Shown: positions 4,565-43,888 of the stretch, piece by piece
How positions within the stretch are numbered: the first letter of the stretch is position 1
How the letters are laid out: each line of letters opens with the position of its first letter
DNA from: Escherichia phage vB_EcoM_SD350
Sequence record: OR911937.1
Direction: 5' to 3' (one strand)
DNA: 52,757 nucleotides
Notes under the pieces: model-generated
What the model was told of the DNA's origin: nothing
Databases searched by the model: none
Seen by the model: only the letters and a program-made list of their open reading frames with translations
Position numbers and translations under genes: made by a program

Positions 4565-5062
4565 GTGGGTAACATTATGAAAATTGTTCAATTAGAGCCA
4601 TATCCGCCTCAATTGGCTATTGTTTGTAGTGAAAAAGAGCACGAAGAGCTCCAAAAACTGATGGATTTGCCTGATTTTGGCAACTGGAATGACCGAGAAA
4701 CGCGTACTGCATCTACCTATACGTTCACTCGCGTTAACTACCCGTATCTGTTAATCGTCGTCGAGCTGTACCACCCGGACGACCTGAAGTACAACACCAT
4801 TTCCCACGAAGGCATTCACGTAATGTCAACGCTGATGAACTATGTTGGCCTTAAATACGACCCGGAAAACGATGAATGGTACGCATATCAGCATGATTTC
4901 ATCGTAAATGCCATTTGTAAGGCCCATGACGAGTACATTGAGCGCCAAAAAACGCCAAAAACTAAGCCAAAAATCGAAACAGGTAATCATCCTGCTATAC
5001 TGCCACAAGACGTAATGAACTCGCTTTTGACTGACACTACTGGGGACTTTTTAGGTGATTAA
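4565..5062 (+). CDS. hypothetical protein with HExxH motif (possible small zinc metallopeptidase-like)
   Basis: 165-aa ORF with HEGIH; start may be GTG at 4565 or ATG at 4577. Confidence 0.45.
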   Translation: MGNIMKIVQLEPYPPQLAIVCSEKEHEELQKLMDLPDFGNWNDRETRTASTYTFTRVNYPYLLIVVELYHPDDLKYNTISHEGIHVMSTLMNYVGLKYDPENDEWYAYQHDFIVNAICKAHDEYIERQKTPKTKPKIETGNHPAILPQDVMNSLLTDTTGDFLGD

Positions 5063-5729
5063 TATAATCTTTGCAATGGGCCAAAATGGGGAATTCGGGT
5101 TATCTCCGGAGTTTATGAAGCATCAGGTTGACTCGTGCAAGACCATGGAAGAGGTTCGTGCGCTTCCTAAATCGGGTCTGCCCTGGAAATGTCCGTCAGA
5201 CATGCTCTTTTTCAGGACTATGACTAATTCAATTGCGACAGAACCAGGCTATAATGCATATCAGCAGCTACGTGGACAATTCCCAAATGGCCAGTTGCGA
5301 AATATGATAGCAGATGTAACGGTAAAAATGGTCGGGCATAGTGTATTGTTAGCCGGTCGTAACACGTATATGACTATGAGTCTGCCTATGTCAGCCCACA
5401 GAATACTGCTGCCGGTATCTCGCCAGATTATGGCTTCAGAAGGCTACAATAATCTGGGTGAGATGGCCGCAGACCTTGAGTCCAGAGGTACTGACGTCTG
5501 GATTGTAGGTGGTGCCGAGTTGATACTTTCGGCCCTTGAAGAACACGCAAAAGACTTACTCCGTATCGACAACATGTTTATCAGTACAATCAAGCAATCA
5601 GGTCCAAGTGATATTTTAATGGATCGTAGCAAATTAATGATGTACATTGATAGCGACTTCACTTATAATGATGAATATGTTGATAACAAACAAGTTCTGA
5701 TACAACGGTACAGGAGTTTACACAAATGA
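5055..5729 (+). CDS. dihydrofolate reductase-like protein
   Basis: Motifs IIFAMGQNGEFG, LPW, LLAGRNTY..SLP and VWIVGGAEL in the order seen in DHFRs; GTG start overlapping the upstream stop; longer than typical DHFR (224 aa). Confidence 0.55.
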   Translation: MINIIFAMGQNGEFGLSPEFMKHQVDSCKTMEEVRALPKSGLPWKCPSDMLFFRTMTNSIATEPGYNAYQQLRGQFPNGQLRNMIADVTVKMVGHSVLLAGRNTYMTMSLPMSAHRILLPVSRQIMASEGYNNLGEMAADLESRGTDVWIVGGAELILSALEEHAKDLLRIDNMFISTIKQSGPSDILMDRSKLMMYIDSDFTYNDEYVDNKQVLIQRYRSLHK

Positions 5730-6232
5730 ACATCATAATCGAGGGGCCCGACAATGCTGGTAAATCTACACTTATTGAGTTCCTTAAATCTCGTACTGGC
5801 CGCAATGTTATTCATAATACTGTTGATAAAGACCCCGAATCGGTCATGGCTAAACAGGCCAAAGAAAACTCGTTGGAAGGCGATTGCATTTATGATCGTA
5901 GCGCTGTTATATCTGAGTATATCTATTGCCTGGTTCTTCAACGTACGCCTGTCATCAATATTAATGTATCACATGTAGCAGATATGTGTGACAACGCTAT
6001 CGTTATCTTTTGTATGCCGCCTGTTGAAAAGGTACTGGCAACTACAAAAGACGAAATGCCTGGTGTTGTGGAAAATCTTGAGGCGTTATACAATCAGTAT
6101 GACAACCTCATTGACGAGCTGGTTATGATGAGTAAGCAGTTCTTCATTTACGACTGGACTGTTGAAGAAGACGGTCCTGAAGCAGCTCTCGAATATATCA
6201 ATGAACGTATTAATAAGGAGTGGAACAAATGA
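5726..6232 (+). CDS. thymidylate-kinase-like P-loop nucleotide kinase
   Basis: IIIEGPDNAGKST P-loop and a DRS segment resembling the Tmk DR(Y/H) motif; 168 aa. Confidence 0.5.
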   Translation: MNIIIEGPDNAGKSTLIEFLKSRTGRNVIHNTVDKDPESVMAKQAKENSLEGDCIYDRSAVISEYIYCLVLQRTPVININVSHVADMCDNAIVIFCMPPVEKVLATTKDEMPGVVENLEALYNQYDNLIDELVMMSKQFFIYDWTVEEDGPEAALEYINERINKEWNK

Positions 6233-34496: not shown

Positions 34497-36464
34497 TTAG
34501 TGTGCCTCTGCCCAGTTACTTTCTATCTTAGCATCAGTAAGAACAGGCACACGAAGCGGTAGTACAGTTTCCATGACCCGTACGAAATCATAGAATCCAT
34601 CTTCTGCTTGCTTACCGGTTGGTAGAGAGAAGTTAAGCTCATCGTGTACCGTCAGGCGAGGTACGCCAATCACGTCAAAGTAACCGTCTTCATACCCTTT
34701 CAGCATTGCAGACTTCATCTGGTCTGCTGACGACCCTTGCAGCACTCGGTTGATTGCTTTGTGGGTGTCTGCCAGTTTAATGTTTGGACCATACTCCTGA
34801 CGTGCTTCTTCAAATGGCAAAGGCATCTTCCCGAATCCACCACGTTTTGGGACCCATTTGTTGAACCACGTCTTCCGGCCCATAAAGGTTTCTACATACC
34901 CCTGGCTATAGCATAAATCTTCATAATGCTTCATGGTAGCACCAATGAATGGTGCACCCTGATGGTACGCCTTCAGAACAGGTTCTGCTTCTTCAGGCGT
35001 CATTGCTAACTTACGGGCAAGAGCATTAAGCATCATGCCGTACAACAAACCAAAGTTAATGGTCTTAGCCGGTTTACGCTCTATAACGTGACCTGAGGCT
35101 TCCTTGATAATATCGACCATAACATTGTGGTAATCTGCTTCCGGGTTAGCCGCGAAAATTGCTCGTAACTCATCAGCGCCCGGGCCGACTGCAAAATGCG
35201 CCATGAATCGATATTCAATTTGGGCGTAGTCTGCTGATCCCCATCTGTGTCCGACATCCGGTACGAAACAAGCACGAAGGAGTGGTCCCAGTATTTTGTG
35301 TCGAGACGGTATATTCTGCAGATTAGGGTCAGATGAGCTAAACCGACCACTAACGGTTCCGCCGTCATCACCGCGCATTTGATGGAATTGACCGTGAAGG
35401 AAGCCATTTGTATTCATCCCCAAGATATAGCCACGAATAAACGTGGACTGTATTTTCTCATAAGACTTAATCTCAGACACCAGTTCCGCAAACGGATGGT
35501 GTAAGCCTGCTAAGAAGTCTGCCGTAAACGACGGATTGCCCGCCGCTGTTCTGAAGTACTCCAGACCTAAATGGTCAAATGCAAGAGCTAAGTCCGGACC
35601 TGAGTTAACGTTAATGTTAAAGCCAATCTGGTCTTTAATCTGCTGGTGCATTTTCCTTATTTCAGCGCTAAGCGTATCATCCGCCTCTTTGGCCTTGTCA
35701 AGGTCAACACGCACACCTGCAAAACGCATCTTAAGCATTAATGGAATGAGCTTGCACTCCATATAGAATACGTCTGTTAAACACCAGCGACTTAACAATG
35801 GCCACTGGGCTTTGATAATGTGTATTGGTAAGTCGGCATCAGATTCAGCATAGTAACCCACAAGACGAGGAGGCGTTTTGTAGATGTACTTTCTGGCTTC
35901 ACCTGTTGGCTTACAGCCATAAGCATCTGAAATCCATTGGTACATCTCGGCTGAGTCTTTACCTTCGCCTACATATTTTCGTCCAAGTCCTTCAAGTGCA
36001 ACACGCGCGCCTGGGTCAAGTAATGCTTCCGCGAATTGTACATCCATGCACAATCCTTTAACTTCCACGCCTTCTGCTGCAAGCCAGCCCAAGTCATATG
36101 TGATGTTAGCACCGACTTTAACTTGGTTAGGTCGCGAGAGTTCGAGCCGAAGCCAACCAAGTACTTCCTCAGCTGGAAGGTTATCCTCTTCGCCGAGCTC
36201 GTGTCTGATTGGGTAGTAAGCTTTGAAGCCGTTGTCCGTAGCGATACTAACTCCAACGATATGACCCTCCCTCCTGGCCCAACCACTACCATTTGTATCC
36301 ATCCCTGGGTCGTATGTTTCACAGTCAAGACCGATAATCTTTGCAGAAGACAGGTCTGGGTAATGCGCGCGCGGCCGCCATCCAGTATCCCTGACGTATG
36401 GGATAGGACGGTTGATAGGTTTAACATTCTTTGCACCTTCGAAGCTATCGAATAAAAAGCTCAT
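34497..36464 (-). CDS. DNA polymerase, family A, with 3'-5' exonuclease domain
   Basis: 655 aa; exo motif LDCETY; polymerase motifs DYAQIEYR (A), KPAKTINFGLLYGM (B), VHDEL (C); no 5'-3' exonuclease domain. Confidence 0.8.
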   Translation of the reverse strand: MSFLFDSFEGAKNVKPINRPIPYVRDTGWRPRAHYPDLSSAKIIGLDCETYDPGMDTNGSGWARREGHIVGVSIATDNGFKAYYPIRHELGEEDNLPAEEVLGWLRLELSRPNQVKVGANITYDLGWLAAEGVEVKGLCMDVQFAEALLDPGARVALEGLGRKYVGEGKDSAEMYQWISDAYGCKPTGEARKYIYKTPPRLVGYYAESDADLPIHIIKAQWPLLSRWCLTDVFYMECKLIPLMLKMRFAGVRVDLDKAKEADDTLSAEIRKMHQQIKDQIGFNINVNSGPDLALAFDHLGLEYFRTAAGNPSFTADFLAGLHHPFAELVSEIKSYEKIQSTFIRGYILGMNTNGFLHGQFHQMRGDDGGTVSGRFSSSDPNLQNIPSRHKILGPLLRACFVPDVGHRWGSADYAQIEYRFMAHFAVGPGADELRAIFAANPEADYHNVMVDIIKEASGHVIERKPAKTINFGLLYGMMLNALARKLAMTPEEAEPVLKAYHQGAPFIGATMKHYEDLCYSQGYVETFMGRKTWFNKWVPKRGGFGKMPLPFEEARQEYGPNIKLADTHKAINRVLQGSSADQMKSAMLKGYEDGYFDVIGVPRLTVHDELNFSLPTGKQAEDGFYDFVRVMETVLPLRVPVLTDAKIESNWAEAH

Positions 36465-37459
36465 CAGTCCCCTCTCACATACGCAATTACAACTGTACGA
36501 GTTGAGTTTTCCATTTTGAGCGCCTGACTACCAAGTCCTATTCTTTCCATGCCTTTAGCCAGTTTACTCATCTGACTAATAACACAGTTGAACGGTTTAC
36601 TAAACTTAGTCGACTGGAACTTAATGTCGACGGACATCTTTGGAATAATCTTATCTGGTAAGTCTGCCTTTGCAGTTGACTCGCCTGTTATCTCCAGAAT
36701 AGCCTGACCTTCGTCGTACCCAGTAAGCTGGTCCATGACTTCCAGGAACTCAGGAGTGATGGCCTGCATATCCATTTCCATATTGAAGAACTTAGATACG
36801 TCTGGCCATTTGGCCGCAAGTACCGGAGCATCCATCTGTACACCATCCGCAAAGCCGAAGAACATCTGGCCGCGGGCGTATCCTACACTTGTGGGTTCCA
36901 TCTTCAGCTTAACCAGAGCCTCAAGCATTGGTTTGGCTATGGCACATTCAAATTCAAAATCTACGTTCAACTTCTCACGTATCATATACTTACCGTTAGT
37001 TGCGTAAGCATAACCATCGCGCAGAAGTAAAGATGTCGCCCATACCTGCGGTGCTTCGTTAGGTACCCACTTGGCTAAGGCAGTTAATACCGGGAGTAAT
37101 TCGCCATGCGCTGAATACCAGTTGTTAACTGTAGCAAGTGGCGGTATTGGTTCATTAAGCGCTTGCATTCTTGTTTTAAGTACACCTGCTGTGACTGTGA
37201 GGTTTCCAGCGGCTGTAATGTTAAAAGTAATCTGTTCAGTTCTTGCCGCATTAACGGCCTTACGAAATGATTCAGCATCCACTTGCAGGTCTGGAAATCC
37301 TTTACATGGCGCTCGTAGTAATACGTTCTTGTAGTATGAATGGATTGTTCCGTCTGCAATCCATATTTTGCCCATAAGACCACTATCAGTATACTTGATG
37401 GGACGAGCTTGTTGAACGGCAGTCTGTATTTGTTTGGTGTCATAGTTAAACTTGCTCAT
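36464..37459 (-). CDS. hypothetical protein between the TS-family gene and polymerase
   Basis: 331 aa, no motif assigned; stop overlaps the polymerase start (ATGA). Confidence 0.5.
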   Translation of the reverse strand: MSKFNYDTKQIQTAVQQARPIKYTDSGLMGKIWIADGTIHSYYKNVLLRAPCKGFPDLQVDAESFRKAVNAARTEQITFNITAAGNLTVTAGVLKTRMQALNEPIPPLATVNNWYSAHGELLPVLTALAKWVPNEAPQVWATSLLLRDGYAYATNGKYMIREKLNVDFEFECAIAKPMLEALVKLKMEPTSVGYARGQMFFGFADGVQMDAPVLAAKWPDVSKFFNMEMDMQAITPEFLEVMDQLTGYDEGQAILEITGESTAKADLPDKIIPKMSVDIKFQSTKFSKPFNCVISQMSKLAKGMERIGLGSQALKMENSTRTVVIAYVRGD

Positions 37460-37467
37460 AGTATAAC

Positions 37468-37481
37468 GGGGCCGAAGCCCC
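37468..37481 (-). other. intercistronic GC hairpin with UUCG tetraloop on the transcript
   Basis: GGGGC-cgaa-GCCCC on the plus strand (UUCG loop on the minus-strand RNA); identical core at 43912-43925. Confidence 0.45.
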
Positions 37482-37489
37482 GCTCCATC

Positions 37490-38374
37490 TTATACGGCCA
37501 TTTGGAGTTTGATGTTTGGCATTGGTTTGTACTTCTCAACCATTGGCGTAACATCGGCAGGAGTGAAGTCAAACACTGACACGTCATAAATTGCATTAAT
37601 GTCAGGACGACCTTCAAAGTTAGTGTCCAGTGTAGTATCAGAATTGCTTACGATACGTTGCAGGAAAATCTTTGCCGCATCGATATGATTCTGATAGATG
37701 TGATAATCACCCAGCGTAACAGTCATATCACCTACCCCAGTACCCAGCTCAGCAGCAATGGTAATCTGCAACATCTGATGCAGCAGAATATCGTGAGGCA
37801 GGCCAAGAATAACATCCGCGCTACGCATGTGGAACATCAGCTCTAACTCATTACGGTTATTAATGAACAGCTGAAAGCCATGGTAACAAGGCGGAAGGGC
37901 CATGGCGTCCATCTCTTGTGGGTTCCATGCCGTAATGTATGCCCGGCGGTCAGTAGGCTTAACCTTCAGCGTTTCAATAACATCTTTAAGCTGGTTAGTA
38001 AGAACACCATTCTTATAGAATGGCTTAATCCATTGCACGCCGTACACAGGACCTAAGTCACGGTTGTCTGGCGTACCCCAACGTTTGTTTGCGTCCTGCA
38101 GGTTACCTTCCCACCAGTTGCAGCCAAAGCCTTTTAGCGTGTCGACGTTTGAAATACCGTTGATAAAGCAGTAAAGCTCAGCAGCAACAGCTTTGATGTT
38201 AACAGGCTTAAACACCGGCACCATCAGTTTGTTGTCGTTGAAAGCCAGCTTAAATGCTGTACCAAAACAACGGCGGGTACCAACACCTGTACGGTCTACA
38301 ACATCCTCACCTTTACGCAGGATAAAAGAAATGATGTCGCTGTAAAGAGAATCGACAGTGCTGTATGTTTTCAT
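37490..38374 (-). CDS. thymidylate-synthase-family pyrimidine C5-modifying enzyme, predicted dCMP-specific
   Basis: DRTGVGT, LGPVYGVQW, DRRAYITAWN, ALPPC (catalytic Cys), GDYHIY align to ThyA motifs; LGLPHD has Asp where ThyA has Asn177 (LGLPFN); Tyr follows the catalytic Cys instead of His. Confidence 0.75.
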   Translation of the reverse strand: MKTYSTVDSLYSDIISFILRKGEDVVDRTGVGTRRCFGTAFKLAFNDNKLMVPVFKPVNIKAVAAELYCFINGISNVDTLKGFGCNWWEGNLQDANKRWGTPDNRDLGPVYGVQWIKPFYKNGVLTNQLKDVIETLKVKPTDRRAYITAWNPQEMDAMALPPCYHGFQLFINNRNELELMFHMRSADVILGLPHDILLHQMLQITIAAELGTGVGDMTVTLGDYHIYQNHIDAAKIFLQRIVSNSDTTLDTNFEGRPDINAIYDVSVFDFTPADVTPMVEKYKPMPNIKLQMAV

Positions 38375-38967
38375 TAAAACAGTTCCTTTTGAGCCGGGTT
38401 AACGTGTGCGTCGATGATGGACTGGATGTCAGGTGCTTTCCACCCTTCAGGCTTAACAATATCCTGACCAGACTTATGCTTGCTGTTGCTTGCATCAGGC
38501 TTAGCGCGTTCTTTCGCCATGTTAGCAGCCTGTACCGCATCCCATGCTGCGTCAAGTGGCCAGTTATTGTTTGCACACCAGGTAATCAGGTGGATAATTA
38601 ACTGGGCCAGACGGTCGCAATGAGTGTCTTCAGTATCCTTAACATATACAATAAGGCCATCAGCATCGAAACGGTCCATAAATCCGCATGGCGTAGTTAA
38701 CAGAATCGGATACTCAAATTCGTTGGTGAACCATGCAGTCTGGTCATACAAGTATAACGTACCTGCGGCAATGTAAATTAAATCTACAATACCATCTAAG
38801 AAGCCAGCTTTGTCGCCGTCCTTCTTAGCTTGTTTAATTTCTTCCATCTCCTCAATAAGACGGTCGTAACGAAGCTTGAACTCAGGTTTACCGCCTTGAC
38901 TAACAGGCTTGAGGTCAAACTTCTCATGAAAAGCGGTAACGCCTGCAGCAATTTTACTGAATCGCAT
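38374..38967 (-). CDS. MazG-like all-alpha NTP pyrophosphohydrolase
   Basis: 197 aa; acidic helix RLIEEMEEIKQA...DGIVDLIYIA typical of MazG-like pyrophosphatases; adjoins the TS-family gene. Confidence 0.5.
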   Translation of the reverse strand: MRFSKIAAGVTAFHEKFDLKPVSQGGKPEFKLRYDRLIEEMEEIKQAKKDGDKAGFLDGIVDLIYIAAGTLYLYDQTAWFTNEFEYPILLTTPCGFMDRFDADGLIVYVKDTEDTHCDRLAQLIIHLITWCANNNWPLDAAWDAVQAANMAKERAKPDASNSKHKSGQDIVKPEGWKAPDIQSIIDAHVNPAQKELF

Positions 38968-42540: not shown

Positions 42541-43419
42541 TTATTTTAAGGAAAGTTTAACGGGCTTCTCATCCTGCGGGAAGACATCAGCAGGGCGATA
42601 ATCATCACAAGCTGCTAATTGCTCTTCGAGTGTTTCGAGTTCTTTCTGGTGCTTGTTGCAATACCACACTTTGCCCTGAAGCGGTTTACTGTAATGGCAG
42701 GTTCTGCAGTTCCTGTCTGGCATTGCTCCTTTGTGGCACAGGTGATGGTATTCGCACATCCCTGGTTTGCACTCCCACCAAATAGGCGATTCAGAAATCT
42801 TCGGCATATCCAAACCAGATTCCGCATATACAACAGCCTCCGCTTTACTCAGTTGTATGTCGCTTTCCAGTAAGTCAATCTCGACCACCTCAAAATACAT
42901 CTCGTCGGTGTTCTTATTGATTGCGATGTACACAGCTTGATTCAGCTTAAGCTTCCGCATGTATACCTGCATCTGGGCATAGTGTACCGGCTTACTTGCT
43001 TTAACAGACTTGAGCTTGACTAACTCTTTAAACGACTTATCGCCATGCGTCTTGAATTCAGCAAGTGCCCATACGCCTTTGTATTTAATTACACAGTCAC
43101 AAGACCCAGAGAAGATGCCATTGAATTCGTGTATGCGCCACTGCTTACCAGTCTTGGGATTGACGTCCAGCACTTCGTCACATACGGAACGAAGCCACTT
43201 TACAATTCTGCTTTCTTCAAGGTTACCACGTTCAAACAGACGAAGTTGCTTAGCTGTAAACTTCTCCTTGAACGACCAGTGCAGAACGTGCCAAAGATAG
43301 CGATAGCAGTTGTGTCCTATCTGTGATGCTCCAAGATGCCCGCGTCGTTCTTCTCTTTCGTGGGCTTCAACTATCTTGATGTCAATACGTTTCTGCAGGT
43401 CGTCAAACGGACTTGGCAT
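42541..43419 (-). CDS. PD-(D/E)xK exonuclease, RecB/Cas4-like with Cys cluster
   Basis: EFK and QMQVY nuclease motifs plus C-terminal Cys cluster (CKPGMC, C, C..C); start set at MPSPFDD (GAGGAG upstream), not the track start 43536. Confidence 0.55.
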   Translation of the reverse strand: MPSPFDDLQKRIDIKIVEAHEREERRGHLGASQIGHNCYRYLWHVLHWSFKEKFTAKQLRLFERGNLEESRIVKWLRSVCDEVLDVNPKTGKQWRIHEFNGIFSGSCDCVIKYKGVWALAEFKTHGDKSFKELVKLKSVKASKPVHYAQMQVYMRKLKLNQAVYIAINKNTDEMYFEVVEIDLLESDIQLSKAEAVVYAESGLDMPKISESPIWWECKPGMCEYHHLCHKGAMPDRNCRTCHYSKPLQGKVWYCNKHQKELETLEEQLAACDDYRPADVFPQDEKPVKLSLK

Positions 43420-43888
43420 TGTTAAACTCCTCAACGCTGAATTCATCGTACACAATATTATGAGCCCACAAGTGAGCGACGGCATTTGCCATGCTGTCCT
43501 TCCATTTGGATTGAGAAGCGGTATGTGCCAATGCAACTACACGTACCAGGTTAAGGTTGGCTATCAGCATGTCAGCACAATGTTCGCACGGCGGGTAGGT
43601 TATGTAGATGGTAACCGGGCCTAAAGAAGGAGTGTCTAACTCACTCCTTATGTTAGCTAAGGTGTTTATCTCGCTATGAATAGTTAGAGCGTTCTTAAGG
43701 CTATTAGGCACTATTCTTATAGAGTCTAGCTGCGTAGGTAGACCGTTATATCCAGTGGAAATGATACGCTTGTTCTGGTCCACAAGAACGCTACCGACTT
43801 GACGTTTAGGGTCCTTCGACCAGCTCGCAACTTCACAAGCTATGCGCATAAACCGCCTATCCCACTTGTCCATCTTCTTCTTTTGCAT
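43403..43888 (-). CDS. dCMP deaminase-family zinc deaminase
   Basis: 161 aa; HSE and PCEHC zinc-binding motifs of the cytidine/dCMP deaminase fold. Confidence 0.65.
   Translation of the reverse strand: MQKKKMDKWDRRFMRIACEVASWSKDPKRQVGSVLVDQNKRIISTGYNGLPTQLDSIRIVPNSLKNALTIHSEINTLANIRSELDTPSLGPVTIYITYPPCEHCADMLIANLNLVRVVALAHTASQSKWKDSMANAVAHLWAHNIVYDEFSVEEFNNAKSV

Follow-up and report, generated by a model that had tools for sequence, protein, structure and literature searches.

The 331-aa protein encoded at 36464..37459 on the minus strand of Escherichia phage vB_EcoM_SD350 is a bacterial-type beta sliding clamp with the DnaN fold, in a phage version that has diverged very far. We consider it likely that this protein acts as a DnaN-type ring clamp, serving the family-A DNA polymerase of the same phage, which would dock on it by a terminal tail, and that the ring would be loaded by the host and give processive replication. 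The DNA analysed, here called the window, is a stretch of 52,757 nt from a Rosemountvirus genome resembling that of Salmonella phage BP63.

Identity of the clamp gene

The open reading frame, with an ATG start and its stop codon at 36464-36466, was recovered exactly as the original prediction had placed it, and Pfam matches of both neighbours bear out its position between a thymidylate synthase (TS) family gene upstream (Pfam thymidylate synthase, E=2e-62) and a DNA polymerase gene. Judged by its homologues, the ORF is not a chance one, because full-length relatives with 43-99% identity occur in other contigs, tblastn finds the clamp in 171 phage records, and an exhaustive profile search returned 3437 cluster representatives at E<=1e-3. 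Single-sequence phmmer against the PDB gave no match and neither did Pfam or NCBIfam at E<=1, so that only profiles and structure exposed the clamp family. The protein matches PHROG 947, "DNA polymerase processivity factor" (E=1.9e-47); the family profile retrieves D. radiodurans DnaN from the PDB (4trt_A, hmmsearch, E=1.3e-5); and hhalign pairs the protein with E. coli DnaN (91.5%, E=8.7e-7, 288 columns), at an identity to DnaN of only 9-14%. Since no curated model matches, we assign it to a divergent phage subfamily (PHROG 947) rather than to the canonical DnaN orthologues.

All structural neighbours of the predicted structure are clamps. One chain comprises three topologically identical clamp domains, each with two helices and two beta-sheets: domain I at about residues 1-112 (37124..37459; helices 8-18 and 62-70), domain II at about residues 113-226 (36782..37123; helices 121-129 and 176-185) and domain III at about residues 227-331 (36467..36781; helices 236-246 and 294-301), all on the minus strand, with approximate boundaries and helices taken from DSSP of the model. 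A PCNA- or gp45-type clamp, in which two-domain subunits form a trimer, was considered and rejected. The original prediction had named a polymerase accessory or processivity factor and a base-modification enzyme as its two hypotheses, and had proposed structure prediction with a fold search as a check; that search gave clamp folds throughout. The processivity-factor reading has thus held up, on the fold, the DnaN homology, the PHROG 947 match and the polymerase linkage described below, whereas the fold result, with no enzymatic fold or catalytic motif, refutes the enzyme reading.

The gene itself is ordinary, in that identical proteins in public phage records are already labelled "DNA polymerase beta subunit." The labelling is inconsistent, many identical copies still being named hypothetical. 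The structural and profile evidence confirms the name under which databases list it, whether "DNA polymerase beta subunit" or "processivity factor," and for the clamp gene itself little changes.

Conservation of the putative client-binding cleft

Two motifs of domain II, ATNGKYM (residues 153-159, nt 36983-37003, minus strand) and KWPD (residues 217-220, nt 36800-36811, minus strand), are paired by hhalign with ATDGHRL and RFPD of E. coli. Together with W140, they correspond to Y154, A171-L177 and R240-D243 of E. coli DnaN (P242 being P219), cleft residues known from beta-peptide crystal structures. Among 164 family members, P219 is conserved in 99%, W140 in 96%, W218 in 94%, and A153 and T154 in 91%, all five within the top seven conserved positions. 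The residues matching E. coli Y154, A171, T172, G174, F241 and P242 are conserved, the C-terminal cleft strand lying outside the alignment. As equivalents of these positions, W140, ATNGKYM and KWPD would form part of a putative client-binding cleft.

Linkage to a family-A polymerase and its N-terminal tail

Directly downstream of the clamp gene lies the gene for a 655-aa family-A DNA polymerase with 3'-5' exonuclease and polymerase domains (34497..36464, minus strand; Pfam DNA_pol_A, E=4.6e-63, and DNA_pol_A_exo1). The minus-strand junction reads ...GGGGAC TGA TGA GC, with the clamp stop TGA at 36466-36464 and the polymerase ATG at 36464-36462. The stop/start overlap noted in the original prediction is therefore real, but the two codons share a single base (TGATG) instead of forming the classic 4-base ATGA that had been described. 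A Shine-Dalgarno-like run, GAGAGGGG (36469-36476, minus strand), lies inside the 3' end of the clamp gene. The arrangement is the same in close relatives (L083-L091), and in 76 of 79 distant IMG/VR loci the clamp is immediately followed by a polymerase of 600 aa or more; in 37 of these 76 the polymerase gene shares 1 or 4 nt with the end of the clamp gene. The pairing involves two families of polymerase, PolA/phrog_17 and phrog_1252. The clamp gene thus shows the genetic linkage with a viral DNA polymerase that marks a processivity factor, and we infer that the family-A polymerase is its client.

On the polymerase side, the interaction is probably made by an N-terminal Leu-Phe peptide, as the following sequence features suggest. 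Residues 1-16 of the polymerase (MSFLFDSFEGAKNVKP; 36417..36464, minus strand) contain a putative clamp-binding short linear motif with the core L4-F5; although conserved, they are predicted to be disordered (AF2 pLDDT<50, where the model as a whole averages 89). The extreme N-terminus keeps [LM]-F-[DEW] or G-x-F-W in 113 of 120 polymerase homologues. At the 79 distant loci, an N-terminal ...G-[LMFI]-[FW]-W-[ED]-D motif is present in every one of the 76 clamp-following polymerases and in none of about 1266 other ORFs, and a motif of the G-[LMFI]-[FW]-W type occurs in both polymerase families. The N-termini form a gradient, MSFLFD to MLFED to MSLFWD to MGLFWD to MRFDSIGMFWED, within which SFLFD of the SD350 polymerase represents a shorter version of G-L-F-W and differs from the canonical QL[SD]LF. 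As a control, PolA of Salmonella phage PMBT28 has no such tail, and the PMBT28 genome has no clamp anywhere. Candidate clamp-binding peptides are MSFLFDSFEGAK and the C-terminal NPAQKELF of a MazG-like protein discussed below.

A hairpin upstream of the clamp gene

The UUCG-tetraloop hairpin that had been noted between the TS gene and the clamp gene is real (GCGGGGC-UUCG-GCCCCGU, 37466..37483, minus strand). It lies between a Shine-Dalgarno sequence, GGAG (37483-37486), and the clamp ATG (37457-37459), with the TS stop codon at 37490-37492 on its other flank. The spacing from the Shine-Dalgarno sequence to the ATG is 23 nt in linear form and about 7 nt with the stem formed. Compared with shuffles, the 71-nt region has no extra stability (z=-1.1). 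Four diverged relatives (L085, L086, L087 and L089) nevertheless retain the stem, with compensatory double changes in 3 of 7 pairs, and the same four share the layout of Shine-Dalgarno sequence, covarying stem, 7 to 9 nt and ATG. An intrinsic terminator was considered and rejected: there is no U-tract in SD350, and a simple terminator scan gave no call. Since the relatives show T4-5 after the stem, the hairpin may act by attenuation.

Discussion

We propose the following scheme for replication of the 52-kb genome. Through the stop/start overlap, the clamp and the family-A polymerase would be made together. By analogy with DnaN and its three-domain architecture, the clamp chains would then associate head-to-tail as a homodimeric ring round duplex DNA, which the host gamma/tau complex would open and load. 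The flexible polymerase tail (MSFLFDSF..., core Leu-Phe) would fit into the hydrophobic cleft at the boundary of domains II and III, where conservation across the clamp family is highest, and the polymerase, tethered to its template by the clamp, could replicate processively.

A search of the window with PHROGs and Pfam, covering its replication and early modules, and of the annotation of BP63 found no clamp loader, the sole ATPases being a Sak4-like AAA_24 protein, helicases and a primase; without a loader of the phage's own, opening and loading of the ring would probably fall to the host gamma/tau complex. The family is acidic, with a median pI of 5.7, as in loader-dependent cellular clamps, and Dinoroseobacter phage R5C encodes, next to PolA, a DNA_pol3_delta2 AAA+ subunit (E=9e-24) in addition to a clamp of the same family (E=3e-35). 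The missing loader would also suit a loader-independent subunit, which would keep the clamp fold but, in the manner of herpesvirus UL42/UL44, contact DNA directly by a basic face and so hold the polymerase, as a monomer or open C-shaped dimer and never as a closed ring. The SD350 clamp is near neutral as a whole (pI 7.6, against 5.25 for E. coli DnaN and a family median of 5.66), with a basic domain I (pI 9.6) and an acidic domain III (pI 5.0); by the criterion of Kazlauskas and Venclovas, who reported a tendency to higher positive charge among viral clamp homologues that lack a loader (PMC3201878), the values for the whole protein and for domain I lean towards direct, loader-free DNA binding. 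A further point against the ring scheme is that the helices expected to line its channel are poor in basic residues, helix 236-246 being acidic. We regard such a subunit as unlikely. Far less credible, in our estimate, is a protein outside replication altogether, either a base-modification enzyme, as its position beside the TS gene might suggest, or a decoy that uses the conserved cleft to titrate host clamp-binding proteins or the host loader: its structural neighbours are all clamps, no enzymatic fold or catalytic motif is present, and the polymerase linkage with its stop/start overlap is conserved across about 80 loci. With a DHFR-like gene present, the TS context looks like routine dTMP synthesis, and a base-modification reading of the clamp gene is ruled out by the fold. 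For the TS gene, the presence of DHFR-like, dNMP kinase and dCMP deaminase genes makes such a reading less likely.

Tethering the polymerase could also be one job among several. The MazG-like nucleotide pyrophosphohydrolase encoded at 38374-38967 ends in QKELF-COOH (38377..38391, minus strand), tentatively a possible second clamp-binding motif, and its relatives end in QLELL, QMELL or QLELPL. DpdA proteins are DNA-guanine transglycosylases that install 7-deazaguanines; in distant loci, DpdA genes adjoining clamps, which often overlap the clamp start, also end in Q-x-[EG]-L-F-COOH. Of the 77 proteins in the DpdA position beside distant clamps, 74 terminate in x-L-[FYW] and 61 match Q-x(1,2)-L-[FYW], as against only 2 of 2271 other ORFs. 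These QxELF-type C-termini, on the MazG-like neighbour and on the relatives' DpdA, suggest a possibly new role of the clamp as a hub. A clamp that also recruits to the fork the MazG-like protein (in SD350), DpdA (in relatives) or transcription factors (as T4 gp45 does) seems to us quite improbable: the support is at the level of motifs, these motifs match the host beta-clamp consensus so that the host clamp could be their target, the SD350 window has no DpdA, and a precedent, the binding of T4 alpha-glucosyltransferase to gp45, failed to reproduce (2025 preprint, 10.64898/2025.12.06.692756). Such recruitment would widen the ring-clamp scheme and does not oppose it. For the widespread short phage beta-clamps in general (3437 cluster representatives), we hold as a doubtful but worthwhile idea that they are a docking hub for terminal Leu-Phe peptides of several phage enzymes, namely the N-termini of the two polymerase families, the C-termini of DpdA and the C-terminus of the MazG-like protein (QKELF). 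If this were true, hypermodification and dNTP sanitation would be physically coupled to the moving fork by a host-loaded, phage-specific ring in phages of 50-60 kb. It would offer a simple, testable mechanism by which 7-deazaguanine insertion keeps pace with replication, and a phage-specific protein-peptide interface as a target for host defences or inhibitors. No experimental work on these phage clamps, or on a connection between DpdA and the clamp, emerged from our literature search.

Comparison with known systems

Compared with DnaN (E. coli 2POL, E. rectale 3T0P), the phage-encoded clamp is about 35 residues shorter, shares 9-14% identity and scores under threshold in Pfam and NCBIfam. Its partner is a family-A polymerase and not Pol III alpha or PolC, the presumed client motif, which differs from QL[SD]LF, stands at the N-terminus of the polymerase, and no cognate loader was found in the phage genome. 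The gp45-gp43 pair of T4 and RB69 likewise combines a phage clamp with the phage's own polymerase, a short, flexible, aromatic-rich terminal peptide and adjacent genes; there, the gp43 polymerase docks on gp45 via its C-terminal tail, ...SLFDMFDF, and T4 gp45 also recruits transcription factors. Other routes to viral polymerase processivity are represented by T7 gp5-thioredoxin and by herpesvirus UL42 and UL44, in which a dedicated accessory protein gives processivity with no loader.

Precedents for single elements of our scheme exist in E. coli. Hda carries its clamp-binding motif, QLSLPL, at the extreme N-terminus, a precedent for the tail position (PMC5397184), and Pol I, a family-A polymerase, uses the beta clamp and is stimulated by it (PMC3201878). 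Both are host proteins acting on the host clamp, with a motif sequence that differs from the SD350 tail. The combination of PolA and a beta-clamp homologue is shared with phages Ma-LMM01 and RSL1, for which Kazlauskas and Venclovas (2011; PMC3201878) predicted a replicase and its processivity factor. Those genomes exceed 150 kb and include a loader subunit, and Dinoroseobacter phage R5C has the same trio of PolA, clamp and gamma/tau-like subunit, whereas SD350 has 52 kb and no loader was found. The same survey described PolA phages of 40-140 kb as typically without clamp homologues; in contrast, SD350 indicates that mid-sized PolA phages can own a DnaN-type clamp without a loader.

Results

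The open reading frame at 36464-37459 (minus strand) has an ATG start and encodes 331 aa, exactly as placed in the original prediction, which had proposed for it either a clamp-like processivity factor or a further enzyme of the base-modification pathway. Single-sequence searches of the protein against Pfam, NCBIfam and, with phmmer, the PDB gave no match. In PHROGs it falls into phrog_947, "DNA polymerase processivity factor" (E=1.9e-47), a label that we checked independently by profile search, hhalign, AlphaFold2 and Foldseek. A profile from 16 sequences matched Deinococcus DnaN (4trt, E=1.3e-5), and hhalign aligned E. coli DnaN, the beta sliding clamp, over 288 columns (91.5% probability, E=8.7e-7). 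The AlphaFold2 model is confident (pLDDT 90.7, pTM 0.83) and repeats a two-helix, multi-strand domain three times; in the fold search that had been suggested as a check, all of the top 50 Foldseek matches were bacterial beta clamps (E~1e-18, TM 0.74-0.81). Therefore, the protein is a DnaN-type clamp with three domains; it lacks about 35 residues relative to cellular DnaN clamps and shares 9-14% identity with them. The processivity-factor proposal was right, and the base-modification enzyme, given the clamp fold, was wrong. The window belongs to Rosemountvirus and shares 98-99% identity with phages PEA2-3, swi3 and BP63. The clamp family is large, with 3437 representatives at E<=1e-3 and members in 171 records of isolate phages, among them Seuratvirus and phages of Pseudomonas, Vibrio and Stenotrophomonas. 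Their labels vary among "DNA polymerase beta subunit," "putative replicative clamp," "processivity factor" and "hypothetical." Since public annotation already identifies the gene, the finding of a divergent DnaN-type clamp is itself ordinary.

In the hhalign alignment, the client-binding cleft of E. coli DnaN corresponds to clamp residues W140 (Y154 in DnaN), A153-T-N-G-K-Y-M159 (A171-T-D-G-H-R-L177) and K217-W-P-D220 (R240-F-P-D243). Among the seven most conserved positions of a 164-member alignment are P219 (99%), W140 (96%), W218 (94%), and A153 and T154 (91%), which suggests that the cleft is under the strongest constraint on the clamp.

Both predicted neighbors were confirmed: on the same strand, a thymidylate synthase gene (TS; 37490-38374, Pfam E=2e-62) precedes the clamp gene, and that of a 655-aa family-A polymerase (PolA) with a 3'-5' exonuclease domain follows it. 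The predicted overlap with the polymerase exists, not in the 4-base ATGA form: the clamp stop codon (36466-36464, minus) and the polymerase ATG (36464-36462, minus) read GAC TGA TGA GC on the coding strand, so a single base is shared (TGATG). A GAGAGGGG run lies 4-6 nt 5' of this ATG. The UUCG hairpin expected between the TS gene and the clamp was found at 37466-37483; four diverged relatives keep it, and 3 of its 7 stem pairs show compensatory changes with both sides altered. The only Shine-Dalgarno sequence of the clamp gene, GGAG, is 5' of this hairpin and 23 nt from the ATG (whole element 37466-37486, minus), and stem folding would cut the distance to about 7 nt. The order Shine-Dalgarno, hairpin, 7-9 nt and ATG, with covarying stems, is kept in the four relatives, a layout that recalls the T4 gene 38/25 start sites. 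Because T4-5 directly follows the stem in the relatives, a weak terminator or attenuator is a further possible role.

A base-modification context for the TS neighbor was also considered, but other genes of the phage weaken it. The window also encodes a DHFR-like protein (5055-5729, plus; Pfam DHFR_1 E=4e-7), a dNMP/thymidylate kinase-like protein (5726-6232, plus), a dCMP deaminase (43403-43888, minus) and a MazG-like pyrophosphohydrolase; such a gene set resembles ordinary dTMP supply more than hypermodification. The first three and the TS make a complete set for dTMP supply, an argument for a true thymidylate synthase and against a hydroxymethylase for base hypermodification.

We then examined 80 distant loci from IMG/VR, with clamps that share 20-30% identity with that of the window. 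Of 79 such loci, 76 have an ORF of 600 aa or more within 1.3 kb after the clamp, and in 37 of the 76 this ORF overlaps the clamp stop by 1 or 4 nt. The 76 ORFs encode DNA polymerases, either of the PolA/phrog_17 or of the phrog_1252 kind, and all start with M-x-R-x-D-x-x-G-[LMFI]-[FW]-W-[ED]-D; none of about 1266 other ORFs (150 aa or longer) in the same loci has this motif. The phrog_1252 "DNA polymerase" (660-750 aa, E~1e-200) follows the clamp in about 50 loci (for example L011:5784-7823, L014:7951-10122, L063:7020-9272 and L060:8207-10288) and has zero Pfam matches; it shares the PolA-type N-terminal G-[LMF]-F-W-D-D, followed by a Pro/Lys-rich linker, TPPPKPPKxEK. Across 120 homologues of the window polymerase, N-termini grade through MSFLFDSFEG, MLFEDF, MSLFWD, MGLFWDE, MSNLFWLPE and MRFDSIGMFWED; 113 retain the Leu/Met-Phe core, and most of the other 7 are N-terminally truncated. 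In the AlphaFold2 model of the window polymerase (pLDDT 89.4), residues 1-16 are the sole long stretch below pLDDT 50. Essentially all 120 homologues carry a second motif after this tail, [RK]-P-[IMLV]-P-x-[IV]-P-D-T-G-W (36400-36416, minus; residues ~17-30), predicted to be ordered (pLDDT ~88).

Two further enzymes have conspicuous C-termini. The MazG-like enzyme, two genes upstream of the clamp (38374-38967), terminates in NPAQKELF-COOH (QKELF at 38377-38391, minus), and its counterparts in relatives end in QLELL (L085), QMELL (L087) and QLELPLDDARI (L089). In the distant loci (L002-L081), a DpdA-like transglycosylase of ~300 aa (phrog_887; for example L011:3902-4825 and L060:6074-7000) lies immediately upstream of the clamp, frequently overlapping its start, with FolE before it; together these form a 7-deazaguanine DNA-modification module. 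Its consensus ending is [D/R]-Q-x-[E/G]-L-F-COOH: x-L-[FYW] in 74 of 77 and Q-x(1,2)-L-[FYW] in 61 of 77, the latter occurring in only 2 of 2271 other ORFs, one of them another DpdA.

Discussion

Because the polymerase tail is strongly conserved yet predicted to be disordered, it looks like a short linear docking motif, a candidate for clamp binding. The N-terminal peptide would probably dock in the clamp cleft and thereby confer processivity. E. coli Hda provides an example of a beta-clamp motif at the N-terminus (PMC5397184), and beta stimulates E. coli Pol I according to work cited in PMC3201878. As a control, the PolA of Salmonella phage PMBT28 (27% identical) is without the tail, and the whole PMBT28 genome has no clamp-family match. 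The PolA of Pseudomonas phage YuA (gp21, L093:3447-5441; 31% identical) starts with MSYLQPPLF, a canonical host-type QxxLF clamp-binding motif, as expected if it borrows the host beta clamp, which it may do; a clamp-family gene was not detected in the whole YuA genome (L093, L097, L098; best HMM E=1.7).

Loading can be read in two ways. No clamp-loader gene was found in the window or BP63, and the clamp family is acidic (median pI 5.7), resembling loader-dependent clamps. Dinoroseobacter phage vB_DshS-R5C has a more complete phage replicase around the same clamp family: a 324-aa "hypothetical protein" near PolA (L094:1160-2134, E=3e-35), a 306-aa DNA_pol3_delta2 AAA+ clamp-loader-type subunit (L094:6080-7000, E=9e-24) and an epsilon-like exonuclease. 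Together, these observations lead us to infer a true, dimeric ring, which the host gamma/tau complex would load in the window phage. The window clamp itself has a pI close to neutral (7.6; domain I 9.6), and by the criterion of PMC3201878 this keeps alive a UL42-like, loader-free mode of action as a less likely rival. A 52-kb phage combining PolA with a loaderless DnaN-type clamp differs from the 2011 generalization that such genomes are without clamps (PMC3201878), and the combination is widespread in today's data.

The terminal motifs are the sole part possibly of specialist interest. Since QKELF is similar to the beta-clamp-binding motif of bacteria (QL[SD]LF / QLxLxL), the phage clamp or the host clamp may have a second client in the MazG-like enzyme, and the DpdA-like ending has the form of the classical beta-clamp pentapeptide. 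Such endings suggest, as an idea that we consider rather unlikely, that this clamp family, or else the host clamp, might also tether DNA-modifying and nucleotide-sanitizing enzymes; if so, 7-deazaguanine insertion would be tethered to a sliding clamp. We found no literature on clamp-tethered DpdA or MazG-like enzymes; the nearest precedent, a contested one, is the binding of T4 alpha-glucosyltransferase to gp45 (10.64898/2025.12.06.692756).
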